A stretch of DNA of 26,915 bases from Planctomycetota bacterium (GTDB lineage Bacteria > Planctomycetota > SZUA-567 > H5-PLA8): positions 1 through 26,915 of the forward strand of contig BTVV01000081.1 of assembly GCA_045863855.1 (NCBI GenBank). Reading direction: 5' to 3'. The notes below the pieces were generated by a model that had not been told where the DNA came from, ran no database searches, and saw nothing but the letters and a program-made list of their open reading frames with translations. A program made the translations under genes and the position numbers. Positions 2,422 through 22,918 of the stretch are shown here, piece after piece; positions within the stretch are counted from its first letter, which is position 1; each line of letters begins with the position of its first letter.

Positions 2422-3456
2422 TCATTTCTCCAAGTCAATTTCATCCACGGTTAGTTCATCCGTAAAAATTAACCACGGCGTTGCACTGGCAATGAGGTTA
2501 TTGGCATAGATCATGTGCCCCACATCCCCTGGATGCACTCCATCAACGAGGAATTCAGCGCACGGTGGAAGCAGGTCCTCCCAAGGGATGCAATGAGCAT
2601 TATCGAAATCGGCTACCACTTGCCTTAATTCGGCACGATATTGTGCGAGGGTCTGACCCGCCTTATTAGGCTTACCCTCCGGACCATCTGCTTGGGTTCG
2701 CCATAGCGGCTCAAGAACCGATAGGACGGCTTGTGGCCAGAGGCTCCGTACCCGTTCCAGGTACCTTTGAGCCAAGTCGCAAGGCAGTCCACCGGACCAG
2801 TCGTTCGTTCCATAGGCAATGACGATATTATTAACGTACTCGACCGGCGGTTCGGGAAGACTGTCTGCCGCAAACACGGCTCCCCCGATCCCGTAGTTAT
2901 AATGTCTTTGGCCAAGCCATTTGGATACTCTCATCGCGTACCCGAACGACGGATGCGTGGCATCCATGCCTTGCGTGATCGAATCGCCCAAGAACAACAT
3001 CTCGGCACCTCGAACCGGCGCCGGCTCGAAGCTCGCACCATCCGGCAGCGCCACTTCGTGAAGCACCGTCGGCCGCGCGTGCGGCAGCCAGAGTTCCACG
3101 CGGCGGCGTTCGCGCACGCCCGCCGGCCCGCACGGCAACTCGCCCTCCAGGCGCTCCGGCGCATCGGCCGCGCCCAGCGTCCCGGTAAAGACCCCGCCCG
3201 CGTACAGATCGAAGTAGCCGCACTTGCGCGCGCCGGGCAGCACGTCCGCGCGAACGCGCACGAAATCGGCGTCGGTGAAGAAGTCCAGCCGCACGCCCGC
3301 CGGGCAGCGCGAACGGACTTCCCAGCCGTCGCGCTGAGCGTAGTACTTCAAGGCCGCGTCGCCGAAGCGCAGGAACTGCAGCGCGCCGGCGGCCTCTCGA
3401 GTTTGCACGCAGCCGCGCGCGCATGCGCGCAGTTCGTCGGGTGTGAGTTTTCGCAT
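2422..3456 (-). CDS. SGNH/GDSL hydrolase with N-terminal beta-sandwich-like domain
   Basis: All four SGNH blocks present: FLGDSITQG, NYGIGG, AYGTND, DGVHP. Confidence 0.88.
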   Translation of the reverse strand: MRKLTPDELRACARGCVQTREAAGALQFLRFGDAALKYYAQRDGWEVRSRCPAGVRLDFFTDADFVRVRADVLPGARKCGYFDLYAGGVFTGTLGAADAPERLEGELPCGPAGVRERRRVELWLPHARPTVLHEVALPDGASFEPAPVRGAEMLFLGDSITQGMDATHPSFGYAMRVSKWLGQRHYNYGIGGAVFAADSLPEPPVEYVNNIVIAYGTNDWSGGLPCDLAQRYLERVRSLWPQAVLSVLEPLWRTQADGPEGKPNKAGQTLAQYRAELRQVVADFDNAHCIPWEDLLPPCAEFLVDGVHPGDVGHMIYANNLIASATPWLIFTDELTVDEIDLEK

Positions 3457-9519: not shown

Positions 9520-10998
9520 CTACTTTCCAATACAGAATTGGGTAAAAATACGGTCCAGCAACGACTCGGTCAGTGCATCGTGGCGCAGGAAGACGCCATC
9601 GGCTTCCACTAAGGCGTGGACGGCTTCACGAAGTTCCACCGCCGCCGCATCTTCACCCAGCCCCGCCGCCAGCGCCTCGCCCGCTCGTTCCAGGGCCTCG
9701 GTCGCCGCCTGGAGCGCACGCCGGGCCGCCGCCGCCCCAGCCTGCCGCGCCGCGGCAACCCGCCCGTTCAGCGCGCGCTGCTGCTCGTACAACCACACCC
9801 GCAGCTCTTCTAACCCTAAGCCGGAATGCGCTGAGACGGCCAGCGCCGCCGCAAAGCGGTCGTCCATGCCGGTTTTGAGCCGGTGCTCGAGTTCCCGCGC
9901 CTCCGCGCTATCCGGACGCGGCGCGAGATCGGCTTTGCTCCAAAGAATCCGGCTCGCCGCGGGGCGTGCGTTCAGCGCCCGCGCATCGAGCGCTGCGCAA
10001 GCCTCGAGCGCCTCAGGTGCGTCGGCGGGGAACACCCAGAGCAGCAGATCGGCCGCGCGCGCGGCGCGCGCCGTGGCGTCCTGCGCGAGGGTGACGAGCG
10101 ACGCTCCGCCCTGAGCGGCCCCCAAGCCGGCGGTATCGACGAGCGTCAACGTGGAACCGTCCGCGCCGATGAGCGGCGCCTCGACGGGATCGCGGGTCGT
10201 ATGCGCCGCGGCATCCACCAGCGCCCGTTCGCGCCCCAGGAGCGCATTAAAGAGCGAACTTTTCCCCGCGTTGGCCGGCCCAACCAGGACCGCGCGCGGC
10301 GCACGCTGAGCGGCGGCGGCCGGTTCGCCCGCCTCGAGGTTCGCGGCTTGGCGCGCCCGAACGGCCAACCCGCGCACGCGGGCGAGCAACTCCGGCCGGT
10401 CCATGAAATGCGCGTCTTCTTGGCTGAAGTCGAGGCCCAGTTCGAGCAGCCCCAGCAGCGCCTCGAGATCCTCGCGCAACGCCTGGCGTTCGGAGCGTTC
10501 CTGACCGGCCGATCGGGCGGCTAAAGCGCGCGCGGAATTGGCGTCGGCGGCGGCAATCAGCGCGCCCACCGCTTCGGCCTGGGCCAGCGTCAGGCGGCCG
10601 TTGAGCAGCGCGCGGCGTGTAAACTCGCCCGGTTGCGCGGCGCGCGCGCCGGTGGCCAGGAGCGCGTCGAGGAGTTCGGCGACCAGAACAGGGAGTGCGG
10701 GCACGTGCAGTTCCACGACATCCTGTCGCGTATACGAGTGCGGCCCGGGCATGACCCAGGCCTGGGCGGAGATGCGCCGCCCCTGGAGCTTCAATTTTCC
10801 GGAGAGCCGCCGCCAGCCGCGCCCGGGCAGCGTGCAAAAGCCCGGGCCTGCACCTGGAATTTCAAGGACCGTTGCGGCGAGTTCCAGCGCTCGTGGCCCC
10901 GAGAGGCGCACGATGGCCCGATAGGCTTCCCCCGGCCGCGCGGCCGTCGGCAGGGTGCTCGAAAGCGCCACAATAGTGTCGGTTAAACGCGGATCCAT
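9520..10998 (-). CDS. mnmE: tRNA modification GTPase MnmE/TrmE
   Basis: Start moved to ATG 10998 (MDPRLTDTIVALSS). IVRLSGP, PHSYTRQDVVELH, PGEFTRRALLNGR, GPANAGKSSLFN, TTRD, DTAG, terminal FCIGK. Confidence 0.95.
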   Translation of the reverse strand: MDPRLTDTIVALSSTLPTAARPGEAYRAIVRLSGPRALELAATVLEIPGAGPGFCTLPGRGWRRLSGKLKLQGRRISAQAWVMPGPHSYTRQDVVELHVPALPVLVAELLDALLATGARAAQPGEFTRRALLNGRLTLAQAEAVGALIAAADANSARALAARSAGQERSERQALREDLEALLGLLELGLDFSQEDAHFMDRPELLARVRGLAVRARQAANLEAGEPAAAAQRAPRAVLVGPANAGKSSLFNALLGRERALVDAAAHTTRDPVEAPLIGADGSTLTLVDTAGLGAAQGGASLVTLAQDATARAARAADLLLWVFPADAPEALEACAALDARALNARPAASRILWSKADLAPRPDSAEARELEHRLKTGMDDRFAAALAVSAHSGLGLEELRVWLYEQQRALNGRVAAARQAGAAAARRALQAATEALERAGEALAAGLGEDAAAVELREAVHALVEADGVFLRHDALTESLLDRIFTQFCIGK

Positions 10999-11013: not shown

Positions 11014-11088
11014 TCTGGCGTGCGTTTGCGTTTTGAGATTTGGAACAGGCCGCGATCGGAGCAGCAAGCGTCTTAGCACGATCGCAGA

Positions 11089-11134
11089 AGTGGAGACCGC
11101 GGCCGGACTCGAACCGGCGAATATCGGTTTTGCA
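11089..11134 (-). repeat. Displaced 3' half of tRNA-Cys (att site, direct repeat of 17294-17339)
   Basis: AGTGGAGACCGCGGCCGGACTCGAACCGGCGAATATCGGTTTTGCA matches 17294-17339 at 44/46. Identity stops in the anticodon loop. Confidence 0.95.
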
Positions 11135-11460
11135 TGGCCCCGGAATTTCATACGACTATTCAAAAAGAAGTTCGGGCGCTTTTCGAAAGGCCTTGGCGCT
11201 CCGCTTGTTTGGCGGACCAAATCGTGGCTCCCAAGCCTCTACATTTGCGACGACAGTTGGGGACTTTGCTTATGTGACCTGCCTCCGATTTTCCTTCCTA
11301 CCTCCAGTTCAGCGCCAAAAGTGCAACAGTTACGTGGTTAGTGAAAAGCCTTTGGCGAGCTTCCAGGTGTAGATATTTCCGGACGCGTTGTTCGCTTGTC
11401 CTCCGTGTGACTGGATCTGCATGACCTGTCGGCGTTTCGGACTCCGGCCAAGGAGGCTTC

Positions 11461-14400
11461 ATGTCCACTAGTAAATGTGCTTTCGGCATTTCCTTCGTCC
11501 TCTCACTGGCAGCAGCGAGTACTGGCCTTCTCGGGTCGGAAGACGCGATGAGTACACGCGCAGACCGGTTGGCCTCGTACGCCCATGCGCCCGCAGGCGT
11601 ATGCTGCGTCGTGAATTCGGGGGATGGCGTGCTCGCCGCCGCGCTGGCGCGCCGCACCGGCATGATCGTCTTCGCCACGGAGGATCGTGCCGACAAGCTT
11701 GCGCTCACCCGCGAAACCGCGCGCGCATCGGGCTTGCTCGGAACCCGGTTCTTCGCCGATGAAGGCTCGCCCTCCCGCATTCCCCTTTCGAACGACTATG
11801 CCGACCTGGTCATCATGGCTGAGCTTGAGGACGGCGCGCTGGCGACGGTGCCGCTGGACGAGATCAAGCGCGTGCTTGCGCCCAAGATCGGCCGCGCGCT
11901 GATTGGCCGGGGCGCATGGGCAGGCGGGGACAAGAAACTGACTCGCACGGCGTTGGAAGCGTGGGCCAACAAGGCAGAGGGTGTCTCGGTTCGCGAAGAT
12001 GCCGACGGACTCTGGGCCGTCGTGGAAAAACCCGCCAAGAATGGCGCGGATAACTGGAGCTACTGGAACCATGGCGCGGACAACAACCCCGCGAGTCTTG
12101 ATACGGCGTACGGCGGCCCCGAATCCATTCAGTGGATCGGGCGTCCGTTTCAGACCGGCATGTCGGTCCTGTATTTGTCGGCGGGTGGGCGGGTATTTCT
12201 AGCCTACAGCGGCGACCGGTTCTCGGGCAATGTGGGCTGGCCGCGCTACGGTCCTGAAGACGCCATCGAGACCAAGGAACGCCAGATTCACGCCCTGGAA
12301 GGTTACAACGGTCGGCTGCTCTGGTCGCGCAAGCTGCCTTCAACACCCTGGTTCAGCTACCACGCCTTTGCGTATTCCATCTGGGTGGCGACGGACGAGG
12401 CGTTCTACTACGGCGAAACCGAGGATATTGTCACGCTTGACGCCCGGTCCGGCGTGGAAACCGGCCGCATCAAGGCCACGGACAAGGGTCAAACCATCTA
12501 CTGGCTGGCGGTCGAAAATTGCACCGCGTACGTGCTTACCGGCGAAGGCAAAAAGGGGGGCGTCTACTCGGGGCAGCGCCTGGCCGCGTACAAGCTCGCC
12601 ACCCAGGAACGCCTGTGGGAGCACCTGGAACCGACGGCCATCGACGCGCACGCCGTCGCCATGTCCGGCGGGCGTGTGAACTTCTTCGCGGGCGAAAAGC
12701 GCGCCGCGGCTCTGGACGCCGCCACCGGCCGCGAAGTGTGGAGCAACGAGAAGCTCGACCAGCCCGCCGCCAAAGCGGTGAAGTGGAGCCCGGTCACCTC
12801 GCGAATGATCTGCTTCGACGACCGCGTAGCGATCCTGAACGTGACCCGCGGCCTGATAGTGCTCTCGGGCAAGGATGGCAGTGAGCTCTGGCGCAAGGAA
12901 CGCGGCCTTTCGCGCGCGTTCGGCAACGGCGCGATGGCCGAGACGGGCGAAGTGTTGCTCACGAACTTGATCCCAAAGCTGGCCTCGATGAAATCCGAGA
13001 CCGGCGAAAAGGTCGCGGGCATGTTCGGGTTCTCCGGTTGCGGCCGGCTGATCTGCACCCCCCGCTACGCCATCGGGCAGCTCGGCAATGTTGTAGACAT
13101 GGAAGAGAAGAAGCCGGTCGCGCGCCAGTACATGAAGCCCGCGTGCGCGGTGGGCAACATTGTGGCGAACGGCCTCCGTTACAGCGCGCCGCATTGGTGC
13201 CGCTGCCTGAATCCATTCCGCGGCCTTCTGGCCTGGGGCCGCGGACCTGAAGCGGCCAAGCCCGCTTTCCCGCTCGAAGCCGGGGCACCCGCCCAACCGG
13301 CCGCGTTGGACGCAACGGCGGAAGACTGGACGCAGTACCGCCGGGACGGCGCGCATACCGGCGCATCGCCCGTCTCGGTGGGGTCGACCGCGCCCGTCGA
13401 ACAATGGCGGTTTGCACCGCCCACGGCATCGTTGCCCACGCCGGTTATCAGCGTCGGCGGATCGATATTTGCCGGCGGCGAGGACGGCATCGTCCGCGGC
13501 ATCGACGCGAAGACCGGGAAAGGCCTCTGGGAGTTCCCTACGGCCGGCAAAGTTTACTTTCCGCCCACGTATTCGGACGGAAGGGTGTACGTGGGCAGTT
13601 CCGACGGCCGCGTGTACTGCCTGGCGGCGGACACGGGCATGGCGCAGTGGCGTTTCCGCGCCGCGCCCGAGGATCGGCGCATGCTGGTGTACGACCGGCT
13701 AACCAGCCGTTGGCCCGTCAACTCCAACCTGGTCGTCGATAACGGCACCGTCTTCGCCTGCGCAGGCTTGGTGGACACCGAAGGCGTGTACGTGCACGCG
13801 CTGGACGCCCGGACCGGAAACGTGAAGTGGACCAACGATGCCCTCGGCAAGAGCGGCCACGGCATGGTGCCGATGGGCGCGATGGCCATGGCCAACGGGC
13901 GCCTGTGGTTGCGTACGGACCGCGGCCATCCCTCCTTCGATCCTGAAACAGGAGCGCTCGCCAAACTTCCGGCCGACGGCGGCGATTCCGCCGACGACGG
14001 CCCCGATGAGCCGGCGCCCAAAGCCGAAGATAAGAACGTCCCGGCGAACCTCACGCCGGAACCGCCCTCCCGGGAGCGGACCGGTATGGGCAAGGACATG
14101 GGCTTCTTCGCGGGCAAATACCTGATCGACGGAGGTCGCCGTCTGTATTCCGAGCAGTGCGACCGGGTCCAGTCGCGCTGCGACGCATTCGCACAGGCTC
14201 TGGATGCCTCCGGAACAGCGCTTTACCCGCGTTACATGCTCGCACGGCGAGGCGCGCCGATGTTCCTGATGCCCGCCTGGGACGACGAACTGCTGGTCTC
14301 GACGCTCGGCCACAAGCTGAGCGCGGTGCTGGTGAAGGAACAGCTCCGCTGCTTGGATGCGACGCGCGCCATGGACAAGGGCGTGCGCGCGGTGCTGCAA

Positions 14401-14697
14401 GCGCCGCCTGCCGCCCGGTGGACCGTGGCGTCGCCGCACCTCAACGCGCTGGCGCTGGCGCAAGATGCCGTGCTGATCCTGCAAGGCGTGGCGAAGGAGA
14501 TCAGCCCGGGGCTCTCCTCGCAGAAAACGGTCATGACCTCCTGGCGTCTGGCGGCGTTGAACCGCGAGGACGGCAAGGAATTGTGGAGCCTGACGGTGCC
14601 TTCGGAGCCGGTCTTCGACGGTCTGACCATCGACAGGAACGGGCGCATTCTGGTCGCGCTGGCGAACGGCACCATCGTCTGCTACGGGCAAAAATAA
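11461..14697 (+). CDS. Large secreted protein: class I methyltransferase-like N-domain plus two PQQ-like (BamB-type) beta-propellers
   Basis: AAGGAGG RBS and signal-peptide-like N-terminus. Degenerate MTase-like segment (VVNSGDGVLAAALA...IPLSNDYADLVI). Repeated LDA.TG...W propeller blades. WSYWNHGADNN and WTQYRRDGAHTG propeller lead-in motifs. Confidence 0.8.
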   Translation: MSTSKCAFGISFVLSLAAASTGLLGSEDAMSTRADRLASYAHAPAGVCCVVNSGDGVLAAALARRTGMIVFATEDRADKLALTRETARASGLLGTRFFADEGSPSRIPLSNDYADLVIMAELEDGALATVPLDEIKRVLAPKIGRALIGRGAWAGGDKKLTRTALEAWANKAEGVSVREDADGLWAVVEKPAKNGADNWSYWNHGADNNPASLDTAYGGPESIQWIGRPFQTGMSVLYLSAGGRVFLAYSGDRFSGNVGWPRYGPEDAIETKERQIHALEGYNGRLLWSRKLPSTPWFSYHAFAYSIWVATDEAFYYGETEDIVTLDARSGVETGRIKATDKGQTIYWLAVENCTAYVLTGEGKKGGVYSGQRLAAYKLATQERLWEHLEPTAIDAHAVAMSGGRVNFFAGEKRAAALDAATGREVWSNEKLDQPAAKAVKWSPVTSRMICFDDRVAILNVTRGLIVLSGKDGSELWRKERGLSRAFGNGAMAETGEVLLTNLIPKLASMKSETGEKVAGMFGFSGCGRLICTPRYAIGQLGNVVDMEEKKPVARQYMKPACAVGNIVANGLRYSAPHWCRCLNPFRGLLAWGRGPEAAKPAFPLEAGAPAQPAALDATAEDWTQYRRDGAHTGASPVSVGSTAPVEQWRFAPPTASLPTPVISVGGSIFAGGEDGIVRGIDAKTGKGLWEFPTAGKVYFPPTYSDGRVYVGSSDGRVYCLAADTGMAQWRFRAAPEDRRMLVYDRLTSRWPVNSNLVVDNGTVFACAGLVDTEGVYVHALDARTGNVKWTNDALGKSGHGMVPMGAMAMANGRLWLRTDRGHPSFDPETGALAKLPADGGDSADDGPDEPAPKAEDKNVPANLTPEPPSRERTGMGKDMGFFAGKYLIDGGRRLYSEQCDRVQSRCDAFAQALDASGTALYPRYMLARRGAPMFLMPAWDDELLVSTLGHKLSAVLVKEQLRCLDATRAMDKGVRAVLQAPPAARWTVASPHLNALALAQDAVLILQGVAKEISPGLSSQKTVMTSWRLAALNREDGKELWSLTVPSEPVFDGLTIDRNGRILVALANGTIVCYGQK

Positions 14698-14717
14698 GAG
14701 CCATGCCCGGCGAATCG

Positions 14718-15608
14718 TCAGCTCTGAATGGACTGGTCCCGGAATTCGGTGGGAGTCATCTGGAAATGTTTCCTGAATTGGCGACAGAAGAAATGCTGCG
14801 ATGAAAAGCCGCACTTCTGGCTGACTTCCTTGATCGAAGGCAATTCCTCTCCGGGGCGCAGGCGAAGCATCGAAAAGGCGCGTTCGAAGCGCGCGCGGAT
14901 CACGAGCTGTTTGACGCTGCGCCCGGTAAGCCGGCGCGCAAGCATGTTGAGCCGATCGGTAGACAGGCCGACGCCGCGCGCGAGTTCAGTGACGGTCCAG
15001 CCGCGCTGTGGATCGGCGTGGATCTGCTGCAGGACATGCGAAAGGCGCGTATCCTGAACCGGCGGCGCACCGGCAGGCACGGGGCGGCCCTTCCCGCTGG
15101 TCCAAGCGAAGAATTTCAGGGCGCCCACCAGTTGCAGCAGCGCGGACTCGTACTGCCACGGCACCGCGGGCGCGTCAAAGCGCAGTGCCGCGATCCGCTC
15201 GTATGCTTCTCGAACGCCCGGAGCCTGCTTCGCGCTGAAGACGGCGGGGACGTGGACCTCGGGCACTGGACCAAGGTAATCCTGCTGCATACGAATCGAG
15301 TAATGCTCGGGTGTCATACGAAATCCGAAGTGGCAGAACCAATAGGAGAGCGGACCGGCCAGGAGTTCCACCCGTACCAGCACCAGCGGCGGGATCAGTC
15401 CAAACTCGTCCGGCTTAAGGACGCTGCGTCGGCCGTCCGGCCAGACAAAGGCCATGCGCCCGGTGCGGATAAAGAAGATGTCGTAATCGGGAAAGAGCAT
15501 CCTGCGGAAAGGAATCTTGGTGGACCAATGATAGAGGTCGCAGGCTCCCGTGCAGGTCGGAATGCCTTTGGTCAGTCGGACGTACCGGGGTTCGTCCGCA
15601 ATGCGCAT
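14718..15608 (-). CDS. AraC-family transcriptional regulator
   Basis: N-terminal cupin-like sensor. C-terminal WTVTELARGVGLS...SIKEVSQKCGFSSQHFFCRQFRKHFQMTPTEFR. Confidence 0.93.
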   Translation of the reverse strand: MRIADEPRYVRLTKGIPTCTGACDLYHWSTKIPFRRMLFPDYDIFFIRTGRMAFVWPDGRRSVLKPDEFGLIPPLVLVRVELLAGPLSYWFCHFGFRMTPEHYSIRMQQDYLGPVPEVHVPAVFSAKQAPGVREAYERIAALRFDAPAVPWQYESALLQLVGALKFFAWTSGKGRPVPAGAPPVQDTRLSHVLQQIHADPQRGWTVTELARGVGLSTDRLNMLARRLTGRSVKQLVIRARFERAFSMLRLRPGEELPSIKEVSQKCGFSSQHFFCRQFRKHFQMTPTEFRDQSIQS

Positions 15609-15614
15609 ACGGCC

Positions 15615-15701
15615 ATTCTACCGGCCGTGCGATTCGTAAAAAGTGCAAATCAATGCTCTCCATGAAGAAGCATACTTCTACTCCAAATGTGCAAATGATG
15701 C
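15615..15701. promoter_or_regulatory. Divergent promoter region with candidate AraC direct-repeat sites
   Basis: Minus-strand TAGAAT (15615-15620) lies 6 nt before the AraC ATG. Direct repeats GTGCAAATCAATGC (15643) and GTGCAAATGATGC (15689). Confidence 0.45.
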
Positions 15702-15773
15702 GGTATAGGTCCAAAGACTTCGCGCCTCCCCCAATGGTACCTTGCGAATAGACCAATTGTGGAGGACGCGCGC

Positions 15774-16982
15774 ATGGTTTGGTCCAACGACGGCGGGCTG
15801 GCCTTACCCAGTGAAATCAAGGCGAAGGCTCGGGAAGGCTTGAGCCTAGTCGCCCACTGGGCCGCGCGGAATCAGGTGCGGCACCGCTGGCCGCACTGGT
15901 CGGCCAATACCGGGCGATTTCCGTACCACGTTCACCTGCCAAGCGGCGATCACTTCTGGTCCACTTCGTGGAATACGGCGCGCATGGTCCAGGGGCTCAT
16001 TTCCGCGTACTTGATCTTGAAGGAACCCGAGTTCCTCTACGCGGTGGAGTGCGGCATCGAATACATCAAGTCCATCCAGTTCTTTGGCCCGGAAGCGCCC
16101 GAGGCGCGGGGGTACTTCCTCGCGGAAACGCCGGTTTCCGAGCACGCGGGATCGCGGGACAGCATCGAGTGCGTTCAGGCGCTGCTCGCCCACTACTACC
16201 TCAGCAAAGACCCCGTTTCCCTTCAGCGCGCCCAAGCCTACCTGGACACCTTCGTGGCCAATCTGGATAACGGCACGTGGCCGGAAGGCCCCATGGTGGT
16301 CCTTCCACGGCTAAAGCCGTCCCATTTCATCCCACTTCCACGGGCCAGGCGGACTCTGGTACAGCGGTGGTGCGACTTCGTCTGTGCCCAGCCGTTGCTC
16401 CAATTGGCCGCCATCACCGGCGACGTGAAGTACCTCAAAGCGGCCAACACACTCGGCGACTGCATCCTCACGCATCTCTGCAAACACGACGGCAGGATCT
16501 GCGCGAAGGACAGCGGGCACCATACTTCCAGTCCGGACGGAGCCCTGGACAACGACGACGGCATCGTGCTCGCGCTTCTGGCGCTCCATCGAGTGACGGG
16601 CCGGAATTGCTTCCTGGATGCTTCCGTCGCCAATGCCGAATGGTGGATGCGGCGCGAAACGCTTCCGCCAAACTTCACTACGCTTTCTGTTCTCATGATG
16701 ATCATGGCCGATCTCGCACGCACGTCGGGTGAGACCTCCTTCGCCGATTTCATAGCGAAGCGCGCCCCGGAGTTCTTCGCCTTGCAGGTTCGGCGGGAGG
16801 AACGGCCGCTTGTGGCCGGAGCGTTCCGCGGCGAAGACATGGCGCATCACTACAGGCAAGGTTCCTCGGCCGCCGATTTCATTTCCTTGCGCAGCACCTC
16901 CTATGGCGCCTTGGCCCTTGGCCGCCTGGCCTGCGACTGCGGCCGCGATTGGAATCCCGCGTACTCGGCGTTTGGTTGGTGA
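15774..16982 (+). CDS. Cytoplasmic alpha/alpha-toroid-like protein (six-hairpin glycosidase/epimerase superfamily candidate)
   Basis: ATG 15774 lies 8 nt after GGAGG. Repeated helical hairpin motifs: ALLAHYYLSKDPVSLQRA, LLQLAAITGDVKYLKAA, DNDDGIVLALLALHRVTGRNCFLDAS, ADLARTSGETSF. Confidence 0.65.
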   Translation: MVWSNDGGLALPSEIKAKAREGLSLVAHWAARNQVRHRWPHWSANTGRFPYHVHLPSGDHFWSTSWNTARMVQGLISAYLILKEPEFLYAVECGIEYIKSIQFFGPEAPEARGYFLAETPVSEHAGSRDSIECVQALLAHYYLSKDPVSLQRAQAYLDTFVANLDNGTWPEGPMVVLPRLKPSHFIPLPRARRTLVQRWCDFVCAQPLLQLAAITGDVKYLKAANTLGDCILTHLCKHDGRICAKDSGHHTSSPDGALDNDDGIVLALLALHRVTGRNCFLDASVANAEWWMRRETLPPNFTTLSVLMMIMADLARTSGETSFADFIAKRAPEFFALQVRREERPLVAGAFRGEDMAHHYRQGSSAADFISLRSTSYGALALGRLACDCGRDWNPAYSAFGW

Positions 16983-17295
16983 GAGGGCGGAGAAACCAGG
17001 ACCTTCCTGATCAAGACCTCCAGTCCCTGTAGCTCACCCTATGGACCCGCATGAACGATCGGGTGAGCGAAAGCCTTCGGCCAAGTATAAATCTGAGTGA
17101 TTTCGAGGTGGATCTTACGAGTTACTTATTGCATCTATGCGAGGCGACCGGGATGCCGCCGAAGGTTGGAGTTGGTTTGTATTGACTTAACTCTATACTG
17201 GGCCTAGAGAAGAACCCGTTTTAACTTGGCGCTTTGCTTGGCGTCGGGTTCTAGGCTACTCGGCGGACCGTTACGAACTGCTTTCCCTTTTAGAG

Positions 17296-17371
17296 TGGAG
17301 GCCGCGGCCGGACTCGAACCGGCGAATAACGGTTTTGCAAACCGTCCCCTTAGCCACTTGGGTACGCGGCC
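17296..17371 (-). tRNA. tRNA-Cys (GCA)
   Basis: 76-nt cloverleaf GGCCGCG-TA-CCCAAGTGGCTAAGGG-G-ACGGT TTGCAAA ACCGT-TATTC-GCCGG TTCGAGT CCGGC-CGCGGCC-T-CCA. U73 discriminator, encoded CCA. Confidence 0.98.
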
Positions 17372-17387
17372 TTCTAATGCGATCAGA

Positions 17388-17416
17388 AGGGTAAAGGGAG
17401 GCGCCCGGCCGGTCAA
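17388..17416 (-). promoter_or_regulatory. Putative sigma70 promoter of tRNA-Cys
   Basis: Minus strand TTGACC-N17-TACCCT, 16 nt upstream of the mature 5' end. Confidence 0.6.
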
Positions 17417-17486
17417 GCCGAGGCCGGATTCGCGTGCTCGGCCGGGAGTGGTGAAGTCCGGGGGCTCCGCTAGTCTGGAAGGATCT

Positions 17487-18197
17487 ATGCGCATGCATCG
17501 CTTGTGTTCGCTGGCGCTATGCTGGGGGTTGTCGGCCGCGGCCTTGGCGGGCGAATCCCAGCCGCCGCCGTCGCCCCCGGCGCCCGCCGAGAAGGAGAAG
17601 CCCGCTATGAATCTGGACGCGTTCGTCGTGGAGCAGTGGAATCCCGGCGAGGGCGCCGTGAAGCTGGAAGAGGGGCTCCTGCGCATCGACACCCAGGAAG
17701 GCCAGGACGGCGTCCACGTCTGGCTGAAGGAAGAATTGCCGCCCAATTTTACGCTCGAATACGACTTCACGCCTCTATCGCCGAGCGGCTTTTTCCTGCT
17801 TTTCTTCTGCCAAAAAGGGCTGAAGGGCGAGGACGTCCTCGCGCCGGAGCTACTCGCCGAGCGCAAGGAGTCGACGCTTTTCCGGACCTACACGCTGGGG
17901 CGCGCGGGGTATCACATCAGCTACCGGCGCAACGAGGCGGCGAACTGCAACCTGCGCAAGAACCCGGGCATGAATCTGGTCAAGCAGCAGCCGCTCGAAG
18001 ACGTGCTGCCCGCGAATAAGACGGTGCGCGTGAAACTGACCAAGCAAGGCGCGCGGATCACGCTCGAAGTGGACGGCAAGACCTTCATGGACTACACGGA
18101 CCCCGAGAAGCCGCACAGCGGCGGTCGGATCGCCTTCCGGCAGGTCTATCCGTCCTCGGCGCGTTACGGGAATATCGTGCTGAAAGAGCTGAAGTAG
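17487..18197 (+). CDS. Secreted DUF1961/YesU-like concanavalin-A-fold protein
   Basis: Signal peptide MRMHRLCSLALCWGLSAAALAGE. VWLKEELP.NF.LEYDF.P, YHISYRR...NLRKNPG..LV and GGRIAFRQ motifs. Confidence 0.72.
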   Translation: MRMHRLCSLALCWGLSAAALAGESQPPPSPPAPAEKEKPAMNLDAFVVEQWNPGEGAVKLEEGLLRIDTQEGQDGVHVWLKEELPPNFTLEYDFTPLSPSGFFLLFFCQKGLKGEDVLAPELLAERKESTLFRTYTLGRAGYHISYRRNEAANCNLRKNPGMNLVKQQPLEDVLPANKTVRVKLTKQGARITLEVDGKTFMDYTDPEKPHSGGRIAFRQVYPSSARYGNIVLKELK

Positions 18198-18484: not shown

Positions 18485-21400
18485 TCATTTCCCCGGCACT
18501 TCGTACTTCGCGGCCAGCGCTTTGACTTCGTCGGGCGAGAGCGCGCGGCGGTAGTGCACCACTTCGTCGATCATCCCCACCAGCCCGCCGGCGCGGGGCA
18601 CGCCTTGACCGCCCATGCCGATGCGAACCACATGCTGGACGATATCCGAACCCAAGGTCGTATTGTTCTGGCGGCCGTCTTCCTGCCCGTCCACGTACAG
18701 GATCAGGTTGCGCGTGCTCCAGTCGTAAGTGGCGGCGACGTGATGCCATTGGCCGTCGGTGATCCGCGTGCGACCGCCGGGCCCGCCCCCATCCTCCCCT
18801 TCCCCGCCGCCCATGCTGCCGGTGAAGCGCAGGTTGCCGCGCGAAATGTAAAACGCTTTGCTGAACGCTTCGAAGTTCCCGCGCACCGAAGTCTTGGACA
18901 TGATCGCGCCGTCGCGCTCGGTCTTGACCCACGCGCCGATGGAGAAGCTGTTGCCGCCGAAGATGAGCGGGCGCGAATTGTTGATGCCGATGTGCGTCTT
19001 GCCGTCCAGTTTGACGCCAAAGCCGTCCCACTGGCTCTTTTCGTAAGGCACCGTACCGCCCAGGAAGACGCCATCGCTGCCGCGCTTCGCGCGGTCGATG
19101 GCTTGGGTGCCGCGTCCTTCGTCGAAGCTCAACCACATGGTCATTTCCAGCGTGGGCGTGAGCGGTTTACGCTCGGCGGCGGGCTCCTTTTTCTCGCCCG
19201 TGGCCGTAGCGGCATTGCCCGGCGCGGCAGCGGCCAGTTCGGGCGCCTTTTCGTCGCGCAGCCAGCGCCCCGCACCCGAGACCGGCGTGATCTCCGCGTG
19301 GTGGAAACGGATCGTGGTCTCGTAACAGCCCAGCGCCACGACGCCGTTGGCCGTCAGCTTCCATTCTTTGTCGAGCGTCACGTCGCTCCAGTCGCCCGCG
19401 TACCGCGCAATGGGGCGGCCGTCGAGCAGCGCTTCGACCCCGCTCTGACGCACGCGCAGCGATACCTTGTAACGCCGTCCCTTATGCAGCGGTTCGGGCA
19501 GCTCAACGCGGGTGCCGTTCTCGCGGGTGTCTTTGCCCCCGATGCGCATGAACCCGGTGATGCGCTGGTCGAAGCCATCGAGCAGGAACAGGATCGCGCG
19601 GTCCCGGAACGGAAGAATGAAGTCGATGCTCTTGGCGCCGTGCTCGCGCGTGAACTCCACCGTCAGGTCATACTCCTCGGGCGGCGCGTAGGGCAGCGCC
19701 ATGCAGGCATACGGCGCGTAGGGGCTCACGATATCCGCCCCGTCGCGCTTCCAGCCCGAAGCCGCGGAGTCTTTCTCTGGAACGCTGCGGGCCAGCAAAT
19801 CGATGCCCGCGCCCGCGGCCGGGGTCGAAGCGGGCGCCTGCGCCGCCGGAGCGGCCGGCGCGGGCGCTACGGCCGTCGTCGCCGCCGGTTTGGCCGCGGC
19901 ATCGCCGCGTGGCGGGCCGAAGTAGAAATCGTCGATCTCGAGCGCGCCTGCATCGTGCGCCACGGCCTCGAAGCCGATCCGCACCGGATTCACGGCCATC
20001 TGCCGGACCACCTCCTGCGGGATTTCGCCGGACGCGGCTTCCTGGCCGTCCACCCACACCGTCAGCCGATCGCCTTGGCGAACGTAACGGCAATCGTACG
20101 CGCGGCCGGAGTGGAAATTGCGTTTGGCTTCGTGGGAGAAACGCCAGAGGCCGGTATCGTTCGCAAACCCGTGGCGCTGGTGAACCGCGAAATCTCCAAA
20201 CAGGGTGCGTTGCGGACACGATTCCACGATGCGCATGGCGGTGGCATCGCCTTCGGACCAGTTGAAGATCAGCGCCGTCGAAGCTTCCCAATCGTTCTCG
20301 CCGCCGGGCTTGATATGCCGGAACTTATAGCGCACTTCCCAATCCCCTTCCCACGTGCGGCGCGGTATGCGGAACTCGAGCGGGTACACGTGCGGGGACC
20401 GCGGACCTTCGTTGCCCGAACGCTGGAAGCGCGCCAGCAGCTTGCCGTCCGTGTGCGCGATCGTGCCCTTGGTCCGGCCGGGACCGCGCGTAGAGGCTTC
20501 CTCATGTATCCGCATGCCTTCCTGGAAAGCCGCGAAGGAGGCCGGCGAATCGAAATCGAAGTAAAGCCCTTCGAGCTTGGCGAGTTCGTCCATGGCCCTG
20601 GCGAGCATCTTCTCGAGTTCGCCGGCGTTGGCCGTGCGCAGTTCGCTCTGGCCGTGCTGCTCGATGAACTTCAAACCCGCATCGCGCAGCTCTTTCCACT
20701 TTTGTTCGTCGTGCAGCCGTACCATGAGCTTCCAGGCGGCTCCGGCGCTGACTTCGGCGGCGCCGACCTCGGCGACCTCCACGAAGCGCGAAAGCAGCGC
20801 CGCCGCCGGCTCGGCCGCGCCGGCTTTGCGTGCGGCCTCGACCGCCGCGCGCGCATCGTCGGCGCTGGCGCTTTCGCCGCCCAAGCTCAGCACCTTACCC
20901 AACGCCGCCGCGAGTCGGTCGCCGGCCTCCGTGCCCAAGCCCTGTTCGGAGAGTTCCATCCGTGTCTGCGGGTGCAGCTTCGAAAAAGCCAGCGGTAATT
21001 CCATCCCTTGCTGCTTGATGTAAAGCTGTCCGTCCTTCACTTCGGCGACTTGCATCTCCACTTTTTTGCCCACGCGCATCGGGTTGCCGACGGCCAAGCG
21101 CAGCGTGAAGACATCCGCATCCTTCAATTTCTCGGCCCCAAGCGCCAAGGCCGCGTCGAGGGTCTGGAGCCACTTGAAGCTTTCGGAGGCCTGCGCCAGC
21201 GGTTCGGCCAGGGGCTTCAGCGCGCCGTCGGCCTGCGCCTGGGAAAGGACAACCTTGGCCTTATCGATCGCCCCGGCGCGCAGCGCCTCCAAAAAGTTCG
21301 CAGCGAAGCGGGCGAACGCCGCTTCGGCGGCGGCTTCGTCCACGCGCGGCGCAGGCGCGGCGGGCTCCGTGCCCGGCGCCGGTTCGGCCGGCGCTGCTTG

Positions 21401-22918
21401 CGCCGTGGCCGCCGCGGAGGCCGGCGCGGGTGCGGCCGCCGGATCGGCTTCTTCGACTCCGAGTTCGGCGAGCAACTGGCGCGCGCGGATCGCGACGTCC
21501 GTTTCGCCGTGCTGCGTCAAGAATTGCTGGATGCGCGCGGCGCGACCGGCTTTGTCGGCCGCGTCCAGGCCGTCGAAGCGCACGAGCTGCGCGAAGGCCT
21601 GCATCGGCGAGAGCGCTTCTTGTTCGGCGGGCTGCGCATCCGTCCCGGCCGCAGCGGTTTTGGCCGCTTCCGAAACTGTTGCCGGTTCGCTGCGCTTCAC
21701 GGGTTGCGGCGGGCGCACGGGCGAAGGCTGCTCGCGGCGGTCCTCCGAGGAGCCGCTGCGGCGCGCTTCGGTATCGGGCTTCGAACCGCCCTTGCCCATT
21801 AAGAGAAAAGCCATGCCGCCCAGGAGCACCGCCGCGGCGACGCCGCCGATGGCCAGCATCGAACCGCTGGCCGCGGGCTCGGCCCGGTCGCGTTCGCTTA
21901 CCGATGCCCGTGGGCCGGTGCCCGTTCCCTTGACCGGTACGCGCGGGCCGGTGGTCGTGCCCTTGATCGGAGCGCGGGGACCGGTTGTGCCTTTCGCGCC
22001 AATGGGCGCCAGTTTTCCCGTCGTCGCGCCTTTGGCGCCGCGCTTGCCCGCATGCGTGAAAAGAATCTTCTCGATCTGCCCGACCAGTTCGGCCGCCGAG
22101 CCCACGCGCTTGGCGGGTTCTTTTTCCATCAGGCGTGCCAAGAGCCGCCCCGTCGCTTCGCTGACCGATTTTTCTTCGCGGTGCGCCAGCGGCGGCTTCT
22201 CGGTCAGATGCTTGGACATGATCTCGGCCGAGGTGCTGCCTTGGAACGGCGGATGGCCGGTGAGCAAATGGAAGAGCGTCGCACCCAAGGCGTAGAGGTC
22301 GGTGCGCGTATCGATCTTGTCGTTGTGCCCGCGGACTTGTTCGGGCGCCATGTAGAAGGGCGTGCCAATGGCCTTGCCCGTCTGCGTCAGTCCGGCGTCT
22401 TCGCCATCGCTGTTCGTCTGCTTGGCCAATCCCAAGTCGGCCAGCTTGGGCGTCCCGTTGGCGGTCAGCAGGATGTTGTCCGGTTTGATGTCGCGGTGGA
22501 CGAGGCTGATCTTCTCCGCGGCTTCCAGCGCCTTAGCCACATCGAGCGCGATCTCGAGCACGCGGACTTCGTCGAGCTTGCCTTCGTCCTGCAACACCTG
22601 CTTCAGCGTCGGACCGTCCACCAGTTCCATCGCGAAGTAGTACAGGCCCGTTGCCGGATCCTGCCCAACGTCGATCCCCTGCACCGCGTTGGGATGGTTC
22701 AACTTCGCGCTGCTGCGCGCTTCGCGCATGAAGCGCTCGATAAACGTCTGGTCCTTCGCGATGCTGGGCGGGAGAATCTTCAAGGCCACGATGCGGTCGA
22801 GGGAGATTTGGCGCGCCTTGAAGACCGCGCCCATCGCGCCTTGACCGAGCTTGTCGAGGATCTCGAATCCGTTGATGACCTTGGGATTCGCACCCGTGCC
22901 TGCTTTTTCGCCCGCCAT
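18485..22918 (-). CDS. Membrane-anchored Hanks-type Ser/Thr kinase with large extracytoplasmic region ending in a LamG-like domain
   Basis: GQGAMGAV, VALK, HRDIKPDN, DLG, GTPFYMAPE, DLYALG. TM segment MLAIGGVAAAVLLGGMAFLLM. C-terminal SFSIGAWVK, DGQWHHVAATYD, LYVDG, IDEV..Y.RALS..EV. AGGGG RBS. Confidence 0.93.
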   Translation of the reverse strand: MAGEKAGTGANPKVINGFEILDKLGQGAMGAVFKARQISLDRIVALKILPPSIAKDQTFIERFMREARSSAKLNHPNAVQGIDVGQDPATGLYYFAMELVDGPTLKQVLQDEGKLDEVRVLEIALDVAKALEAAEKISLVHRDIKPDNILLTANGTPKLADLGLAKQTNSDGEDAGLTQTGKAIGTPFYMAPEQVRGHNDKIDTRTDLYALGATLFHLLTGHPPFQGSTSAEIMSKHLTEKPPLAHREEKSVSEATGRLLARLMEKEPAKRVGSAAELVGQIEKILFTHAGKRGAKGATTGKLAPIGAKGTTGPRAPIKGTTTGPRVPVKGTGTGPRASVSERDRAEPAASGSMLAIGGVAAAVLLGGMAFLLMGKGGSKPDTEARRSGSSEDRREQPSPVRPPQPVKRSEPATVSEAAKTAAAGTDAQPAEQEALSPMQAFAQLVRFDGLDAADKAGRAARIQQFLTQHGETDVAIRARQLLAELGVEEADPAAAPAPASAAATAQAAPAEPAPGTEPAAPAPRVDEAAAEAAFARFAANFLEALRAGAIDKAKVVLSQAQADGALKPLAEPLAQASESFKWLQTLDAALALGAEKLKDADVFTLRLAVGNPMRVGKKVEMQVAEVKDGQLYIKQQGMELPLAFSKLHPQTRMELSEQGLGTEAGDRLAAALGKVLSLGGESASADDARAAVEAARKAGAAEPAAALLSRFVEVAEVGAAEVSAGAAWKLMVRLHDEQKWKELRDAGLKFIEQHGQSELRTANAGELEKMLARAMDELAKLEGLYFDFDSPASFAAFQEGMRIHEEASTRGPGRTKGTIAHTDGKLLARFQRSGNEGPRSPHVYPLEFRIPRRTWEGDWEVRYKFRHIKPGGENDWEASTALIFNWSEGDATAMRIVESCPQRTLFGDFAVHQRHGFANDTGLWRFSHEAKRNFHSGRAYDCRYVRQGDRLTVWVDGQEAASGEIPQEVVRQMAVNPVRIGFEAVAHDAGALEIDDFYFGPPRGDAAAKPAATTAVAPAPAAPAAQAPASTPAAGAGIDLLARSVPEKDSAASGWKRDGADIVSPYAPYACMALPYAPPEEYDLTVEFTREHGAKSIDFILPFRDRAILFLLDGFDQRITGFMRIGGKDTRENGTRVELPEPLHKGRRYKVSLRVRQSGVEALLDGRPIARYAGDWSDVTLDKEWKLTANGVVALGCYETTIRFHHAEITPVSGAGRWLRDEKAPELAAAAPGNAATATGEKKEPAAERKPLTPTLEMTMWLSFDEGRGTQAIDRAKRGSDGVFLGGTVPYEKSQWDGFGVKLDGKTHIGINNSRPLIFGGNSFSIGAWVKTERDGAIMSKTSVRGNFEAFSKAFYISRGNLRFTGSMGGGEGEDGGGPGGRTRITDGQWHHVAATYDWSTRNLILYVDGQEDGRQNNTTLGSDIVQHVVRIGMGGQGVPRAGGLVGMIDEVVHYRRALSPDEVKALAAKYEVPGK

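Follow-up and report, generated by a model that had tools for sequence, protein, structure and literature searches.

The 26,915-nucleotide stretch of DNA analysed here (the window) is contig C81 of G000, the assembly of an uncultured planctomycete (6.93 Mb in 287 contigs, 93.9% complete), and it carries an island of about 6.2 kb in a gene for tRNA-Cys. One end of the island is the left attachment site (attL, 17294–17371, minus strand), defined by the repeat and by the call of an intact tRNA-Cys(GCA) gene at 17296–17371. The other end, attR (11089–11134, minus strand), is a displaced 3' half of the tRNA-Cys gene that starts at base 2 of the anticodon loop; it differs from the gene by two substitutions within the repeat. 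The two repeat copies (11089–11134 and 17294–17339) lie 6205 bp apart and are identical at 44 of 46 positions, the exceptions being 11096 and 11124; in a BLAST search of the whole genome the match has an E-value of 1e-14. Their identity begins at loop base 2, so that six of the seven loop bases are common to both copies and base 1 differs. These data bear out the initial annotation of the contig, which had noticed the intact tRNA-Cys gene, a 44/46-identical copy of its 3' half about 6.2 kb away, and an identity that ended in the anticodon loop.

Three long genes lie between the repeat copies. P1 (11461–14697, plus strand) encodes 1078 residues; a regulator of the AraC family (P2, 14718–15608, minus strand, 296 residues) is convergent with P1 and divergent from P3 (15774–16982, plus strand, 402 residues). 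As had been noted from the letters alone, none of the three is a recombinase, relaxase or phage gene: no Pfam match to such families was found in any of them. Outside the island, mnmE (9520–10998, minus strand) forms the host flank beyond attR and a DUF1961 gene (17487–18197, plus strand) that beyond attL, both identified by Pfam and by alignment to the congener G002.

The island is real. In run X3, which comes from a separate study, single contigs cover 11032–12619 and 15736–17861, that is, both junctions; because these were assembled independently, the repeat is not an assembly artefact, an explanation that the initial annotation had raised. We examined eight of the 24 listed sequencing runs, all as Logan contigs, and found near-identical pieces from inside the island in all eight. 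No joint between attachment sites, whether from a circle or an empty site, was present in these contigs, which drop rare variants and hence give no evidence on excision. Six small-share runs (X14–X19), of which X17 and X18 seem to be a single data set, were considered as strains with an empty site and rejected, as they contain pieces from within the island at low depth. No RNA run was among the 24 listed. Foreign composition was not seen, since the GC content of the island (0.628) is near that of the genome (0.638) and codon use of the cargo is within the host range (percentiles of GC content at third codon positions, GC3, 0.19–0.50). A promoter and terminator scan and a search of Rfam gave nothing above chance beyond the tRNA.

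An empty site and a hotspot next to mnmE

The empty site that had been predicted, with tRNA-Cys directly upstream of mnmE, exists in G002 (94% complete, MnmE 90% identical), where the tRNA-Cys gene (C1:2921919–2922000) lies about 90 bp from the start of mnmE (2922091). The part of the window up to 11134 aligns to G002 at 88% and the part from 17294 onwards at 92%; nothing in between aligns. The breakpoints are exactly the two repeat copies, which also maps the host junction of attR. This alignment shows that the island is an insertion, absent in G002. Synonymous divergence (dS) of the flanks to G002 is 0.10–0.30, compared with two changes in the 46 repeat bases, which are too few to date the insertion beyond saying that it is not brand new.

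We compared the mnmE region in 14 relatives and found tRNA-Cys adjoining mnmE in four (G001, G002, G007 and G012); none of our claims depends on G017, a genome that is unpublished. The interval differs among the four: it is empty in G002 and holds one gene of unknown kind in G007, a cupin-like gene in G012 and, in G001, a transporter gene that we take to be nhaA-like. The interval is thus a hotspot. A tRNA fragment was found there in G000 only, the genes in G001, G007 and G012 being unaccompanied by one, and a search for P3 in both congeners did not find it. In G001 (L033), a 115-bp, 88.7% direct duplication of the 5' end of mnmE (~15462–15576 and ~17913–18027) flanks the transporter gene, an insertion footprint of another kind at this hotspot.

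Paired repeats at the island ends

Each core has two copies of the motif CGCCAA no more than 120 bp away, on the strand of the tRNA: at 11193–11214 (right end) and at 17226–17243 (left end), both on the minus strand. Two copies at both ends were obtained in 0 of 20000 shuffles. Mobile tyrosine recombinases are known to bind arm sites through an N-terminal domain (PMC8138268), and we infer that the CGCCAA repeats are arm-type integrase sites. Three metagenome loci (L075, L082, L086) have a similar end, near-identical in the left-end motif, behind tRNA-Cys, and up to 3.7 kb of sequence there gave no integrase match.

Tandem CGCCAA has 19 matches in G000; six fall no further than 300 bp from a tRNA or a listed tRNA fragment, zones that amount to 0.69% of the genome. 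Two further matches lie at an unlisted fragment on contig C13 and on an integrase contig, C240. As the motif was chosen after some sites had been seen, it was tried on held-out genomes; 6 of the 17 tandem matches in G002 were at tRNAs or fragments, and none of the 10 in G001 was near a tRNA. Integrases located at Leu(CAA), Gly-type and Arg(CCT) cores (C83, C144 and C240) also have the motif, and tandem units of arm plus core occur within the genus, on C144 and in G002.

Search for an integrase and a parent element

The 18 matches to PF00589 in G000 include none on the island contig. Searching the island by tblastn with these 18 integrases and with the tRNA-Cys integrase of G005, a genome of the same family, returned nothing credible, and profile hidden Markov models (HMMs) from 31 related integrases gave independent E-values of 0.5 or worse in the three island spacers, against 3e-42 for a control remnant. 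The initial annotation had proposed looking through the genome for tyrosine integrases next to a matching core; our search of the G000 assembly found none beside a Cys core and no other Cys-linked integrase. Within the integrase clade that has CGCCAA arms, 0 of 30 family loci are at tRNA-Cys within 1.5-kb flanks.

G005 shows that Cys-targeting integrases exist in the family: a 544-aa integrase-like open reading frame lies directly behind its tRNA-Cys gene, and a 3' tRNA-Cys fragment starting at the same loop lies on another contig, with end repeats that differ from those of the island. The closest relative of this integrase in G000 has 27% identity and is at tRNA-Arg(TCT).

No parent element was found in metagenome loci, GTDB, 400 other genomes of the phylum or viral contigs. 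A tRNA-Cys pattern matched 16 metagenome loci, all of them intact genes, two with integrase matches on the upstream side. The core-plus-arm pattern had three matches in GTDB, all at tRNA-Leu in other phyla, and none in the 400 phylum genomes or, in two scans, among viral contigs. A second element with the island ends was likewise absent from the genome by BLAST and from the 400 genomes by pattern.

Damage at attR and integrase loss in the lineage

Compared with the tRNA gene, the right attachment site has one mismatch in the anticodon loop and two other substitutions. We compared 12 attachment sites, nine of which are linked to a whole or partial integrase; all nine have the seven loop bases intact (7/7). 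The integrase-less sites have one loop mismatch (the Cys site of the island), three (a Val site) and none (a site in genome G049). Since the tRNA gene is 100% conserved in G001, G002 and G007, the fragment probably acquired its two further changes by drift once it had been displaced. Symmetry of the core was tried as a sign of decay and rejected, because integrase-bearing sites also score 1–2 of 7.

At a tRNA-Arg(CCT) island of G000 (C173:7328–8764) the integrase ends after ~86–104 aa, and a matching tRNA-Arg(CCT) fragment with arms lies at C13:57681–57778. A second integrase-less tRNA island in G000 (C45:37907–41098) occupies tRNA-Val(CAC) and carries ABC-transporter genes over 3 kb; this interval is common to G002 and absent from that site in G001. 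The truncated Arg(CCT) integrase and the integrase-less Val interval show that integrase loss at tRNA islands is common in the lineage. G049 has a 4-kb integrase-less island at tRNA-Cys (C332:9405–13471, L114) with an autotransporter-like gene, a label read from the translation, and G002 has a gene-less tandem unit of 111 bp, made of an arm repeat and a tRNA-Arg(CCT) core (C2:1990567–1990694; L209, L210), which resembles a micro form of a cis-mobilizable element (CIME).

Other tRNA loci were recorded in passing. The tRNA-Arg(TCT) and tRNA-Leu(CAA) genes on C46 and C83 of G000 each have 5' and 3' fragments elsewhere and hence elements on either side of the one tRNA. A cluster of 26 same-strand tRNA genes at C1:23667–28178 of G000 includes a second, divergent tRNA-Cys, and G006 (L054) has a tRNA array of 30 genes.

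The cargo genes and their putative regulon

P3 has no Pfam match. Its structural model (predicted local distance difference test score 89) is a six-hairpin (alpha/alpha)6 barrel that aligns over 295–340 residues (Z 25–31, root-mean-square deviation 3.0–4.3) to GH88 unsaturated glucuronyl hydrolase (1vd5, 3wiw), cellobiose 2-epimerase (4z4j) and GH76 alpha-1,6-mannanase (4d4a, 6u4z), GH denoting glycoside hydrolase families. None of these families is clearly ahead, with identity only 9–17%, and profile matches to six-hairpin families reach E 5e-9. Invariant residues include D129, N260-D261-D262-G263 and G353-E354-D355; the HMMER alignment begins after R128-D129, and the orthologue in G005 has only a sub-threshold match to GH127. 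The nearest Atlas clusters are mostly proteins of Planctomycetota, Verrucomicrobiota and Lentisphaerota with partial GH88 or GH127 labels, and the family occurs in 15 of the 400 other phylum genomes searched. By its model P3 has a glycosidase/epimerase fold of unassigned family and, lacking a signal peptide, it looks cytoplasmic.

By its predicted domains, P1 combines a double beta-propeller with a methyltransferase-like domain and looks secreted. It has a signal-peptide-like N-terminus, a class I methyltransferase-like domain (profile match to 3dlc, E 5e-14) whose glycine-rich motif looks degenerate, and then two propeller regions of the PQQ/BamB type, with PQQ_2 repeats (PF13360) and propeller matches. 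Between the propeller regions, four cysteines (527, 562, 580 and 582) are invariant across 25 homologues and may form disulfides or a metal site. While the repeats and propellers are like those of BamB and PQQ-dependent dehydrogenases, the second propeller region, the methyltransferase-like domain and the four cysteines are not, and we rejected both assignments because the scores are far under the curated equivalog or subfamily cut-offs (74 against 285 for BamB, TIGR03300; 56 against 480 for PQQ dehydrogenase, TIGR03075). Among the papers listed in a literature search on propeller–methyltransferase proteins, judged by titles and abstract openings, none dealt with the P1 family, and as far as our searches reach both the P1 and the P3 families are uncharacterised. 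The three closest homologues of P1 share its hydrophobic N-terminus, which P3 lacks, in agreement with the split into a secreted and a cytoplasmic enzyme-like protein proposed initially.

P2 matches PF12833, the C-terminal double helix-turn-helix of the AraC family, at 61.2 bits (cut-off 33.6). A putative operator half-site, AAA[AT]GTGCAA, has 13 copies in the genome, three of them in the island and on the plus strand: one upstream of P1 (11317–11326) and two direct copies in the spacer between araC and P3 (15639–15648 and 15685–15694). When the region upstream of P1 was shuffled 20000 times, the motif arose in 58 cases, and one copy is conserved in the corresponding spacer of G005. AraC control of both enzyme-like genes, as first suggested, is therefore probable, the motif they share pointing to co-regulation of P1 and P3. 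The cargo is probably sugar-related, by analogy with the fold of P3, the regulator family and the host.

Of the three genes, G005 has only the AraC and P3 orthologues (P3 64% identical), flanked on one side by an operon of pyruvate-dehydrogenase type and on the other by a repeat protein. A scan of 59 kb there met no tRNA, and the AraC–P3 pair is thus not tied to tRNA islands. The ratio of nonsynonymous to synonymous change (dN/dS) against G005 is ~0.2–0.25 for both AraC and P3. A conserved three-gene module was not seen, as none of 29 loci of the P3 family had a match to AraC, P1 or an integrase within 1.5 kb. The longest contigs of P0008 (63% to P3) and of P0030 (58% to P1) both measure 40280 bases, a possible sign that the two occur together.

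Two further features of the window lie outside the island. A gene at 18485–22918 encodes a 1477-aa Ser/Thr kinase with a LamG domain, 91% identical in G002. A GDSL-lipase gene at 2422–3456 has low GC3 and codon adaptation (7th–9th percentile) with flanks of 55–58% GC, and is possibly a separate small acquisition.

Relation to described elements

PMC7563491 and PMC6323972 describe CIMEs as att-bounded elements of 1.2–13 kb, without integrase or transfer genes, often with cargo for carbohydrate metabolism and, in Streptococcus agalactiae, targeting tRNA-Lys; ICEberg defines them by intact attL and attR. The island is similar in that att sites flank it, its size falls in this class, it targets a tRNA, and no integrase, conjugation or mobilisation gene was found by Pfam in the three genes or by tblastn and HMM search in the spacers. 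It is unlike them in its planctomycete host, in standing alone rather than in tandem (no tandem neighbour was found by BLAST), and in its right att site, which retains its arms and has the loop mismatch and two substitutions described above. Its parent may as well have been a prophage or satellite as an integrative and conjugative element (ICE) or an integrative and mobilizable element (IME), and strict CIME status rests on ancestry and att function. IMEs, as defined in PMC6323972, code for excision and integration of their own, for which we found no gene in the island.

For Islander, PMC4383910 gives the anticodon-centred site A for 2083 of 3919 islands, the commonest class, and a 3' fragment for 3760 of 3919. 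Our island is of this type, with a tRNA gene and a 3' fragment that starts in the anticodon loop, in correct orientation and within 2–200 kb, and differs in having no tyrosine integrase reading frame. Since Islander, according to the same text, rejects candidates without an integrase, such islands are outside that catalogue by design. The element thus belongs to a described class, integrase-less tRNA islands, and is ordinary as an element; its initial designation as a candidate for an undescribed system finds no support as regards the element, given its agreement with CIMEs as conceived in PMC7563491 and PMC6323972. A literature search for reports of such islands in planctomycetes found none.

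Origin of the island

The footprint of a tyrosine integrase acting in the anticodon loop, recognised at the outset, is supported, and we think it likely that the island is a grounded, CIME-like remnant of a tyrosine-integrase element that kept its cargo. An element with an arm-binding integrase would have recombined within the anticodon loop, restoring the tRNA gene. An internal deletion would then have taken the mobility genes and left ~310–330 bp of each end. The displaced tRNA half would have drifted, so that excision may by now seldom or never occur, short of the arrival of a new Cys-specific element next to the island (accretion). The cargo would persist as a small regulon, with AraC activating cytoplasmic P3 and exported P1, probably when a sugar is sensed. 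The initial annotation offered two alternatives, decay with retained cargo and mobilisation in trans; the first is favoured by the damaged att site, the failure to find a Cys-linked integrase in the genome, the integrase-less and truncated-integrase islands of the same genome and the AraC–P3 pair that occurs without a tRNA elsewhere; the second we retain as improbable.

Mobilisation in trans would make the island a streamlined, gene-minimal cassette, with CGCCAA-arm integrases moving integrase-less cargo between anticodon-loop sites of tRNAs; the mover could be a resident integrase (C83, C144 or C240) or an incoming Cys-specific element. The paired motifs at both ends, the tandem motif at other att sites in G000 and G002, the intact-looking integrases that carry it, and the similar ends behind tRNA-Cys in three metagenome loci with no integrase match nearby would all be expected of such a cassette. 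However, the cores at which the resident integrases are found are Leu(CAA), Gly-type and Arg(CCT), not Cys, none of the 30 family loci of their clade is at tRNA-Cys within 1.5-kb flanks, and no second element with the island ends was found in the genome or in 400 other genomes of the phylum. The motif itself is generic, flanking tRNA-Leu loci in other phyla and missing from the vicinity of tRNAs in G001. A mismatch in the loop is expected to hinder strand exchange by tyrosine recombinases, which also counts against movement in trans. We therefore consider this reading unlikely, in which the cassette would carry a regulon under AraC comprising an exported propeller protein and a glycan enzyme of a new six-hairpin family. 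No more probable is the idea that the element was never much larger and that cargo and arms arrived together, already without an integrase, as a passenger in tandem with a helper that later excised (accretion and cis-mobilisation). This route is described for CIMEs in PMC7563491, and it would account for the clean ends without debris and for the tandem arm-plus-core units in the genus; however, the locus has a single tRNA fragment, no helper was found, and sequence alone does not separate a passenger from decay in place. Far less probable still is that the genes are ancestral at the locus and were lost in G002 by recombination between the 46-bp repeats. Host-like codon use and the varying contents of the interval across the family are compatible with it, yet without an integration event the repeat and the arm-like ends would be left unexplained, other genes, unaccompanied by a fragment, occupy the site in G001, G007 and G012, and searches of both congeners did not detect P3.

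Several observations weigh against the decayed remnant that we prefer. Both arm pairs are still recognisable and there is no integrase debris, which also fits a streamlined cassette. Because the parent element was not found, the internal deletion is not observed directly, and a Cys-specific integrase could be unassembled in a genome of 287 contigs that is 93.9% complete. The damage at attR amounts to three bases, the integrase-bearing site of G005 also has one mismatch (outside the loop), and the integrase-less site of G049 keeps an intact loop. The dN/dS values of AraC and P3 span the whole divergence from G005, near synonymous saturation, and so do not demonstrate selection since the insertion.

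Implications

The island illustrates how acquired genes become fixed at tRNAs in these planctomycetes. Catalogues that filter for integrases leave out islands of its kind. If mobilisation in trans were true, it would represent a new route of cargo exchange in Planctomycetota. The cargo, although ordinary in appearance, is the more useful part of the finding: P3 represents a conserved six-hairpin family without an assigned activity, and the operator-like motif links it to a large family of exported propeller proteins that databases label as BamB or PQQ-binding. The shared motif thereby gives a regulon that can be tested and a question about its substrate.

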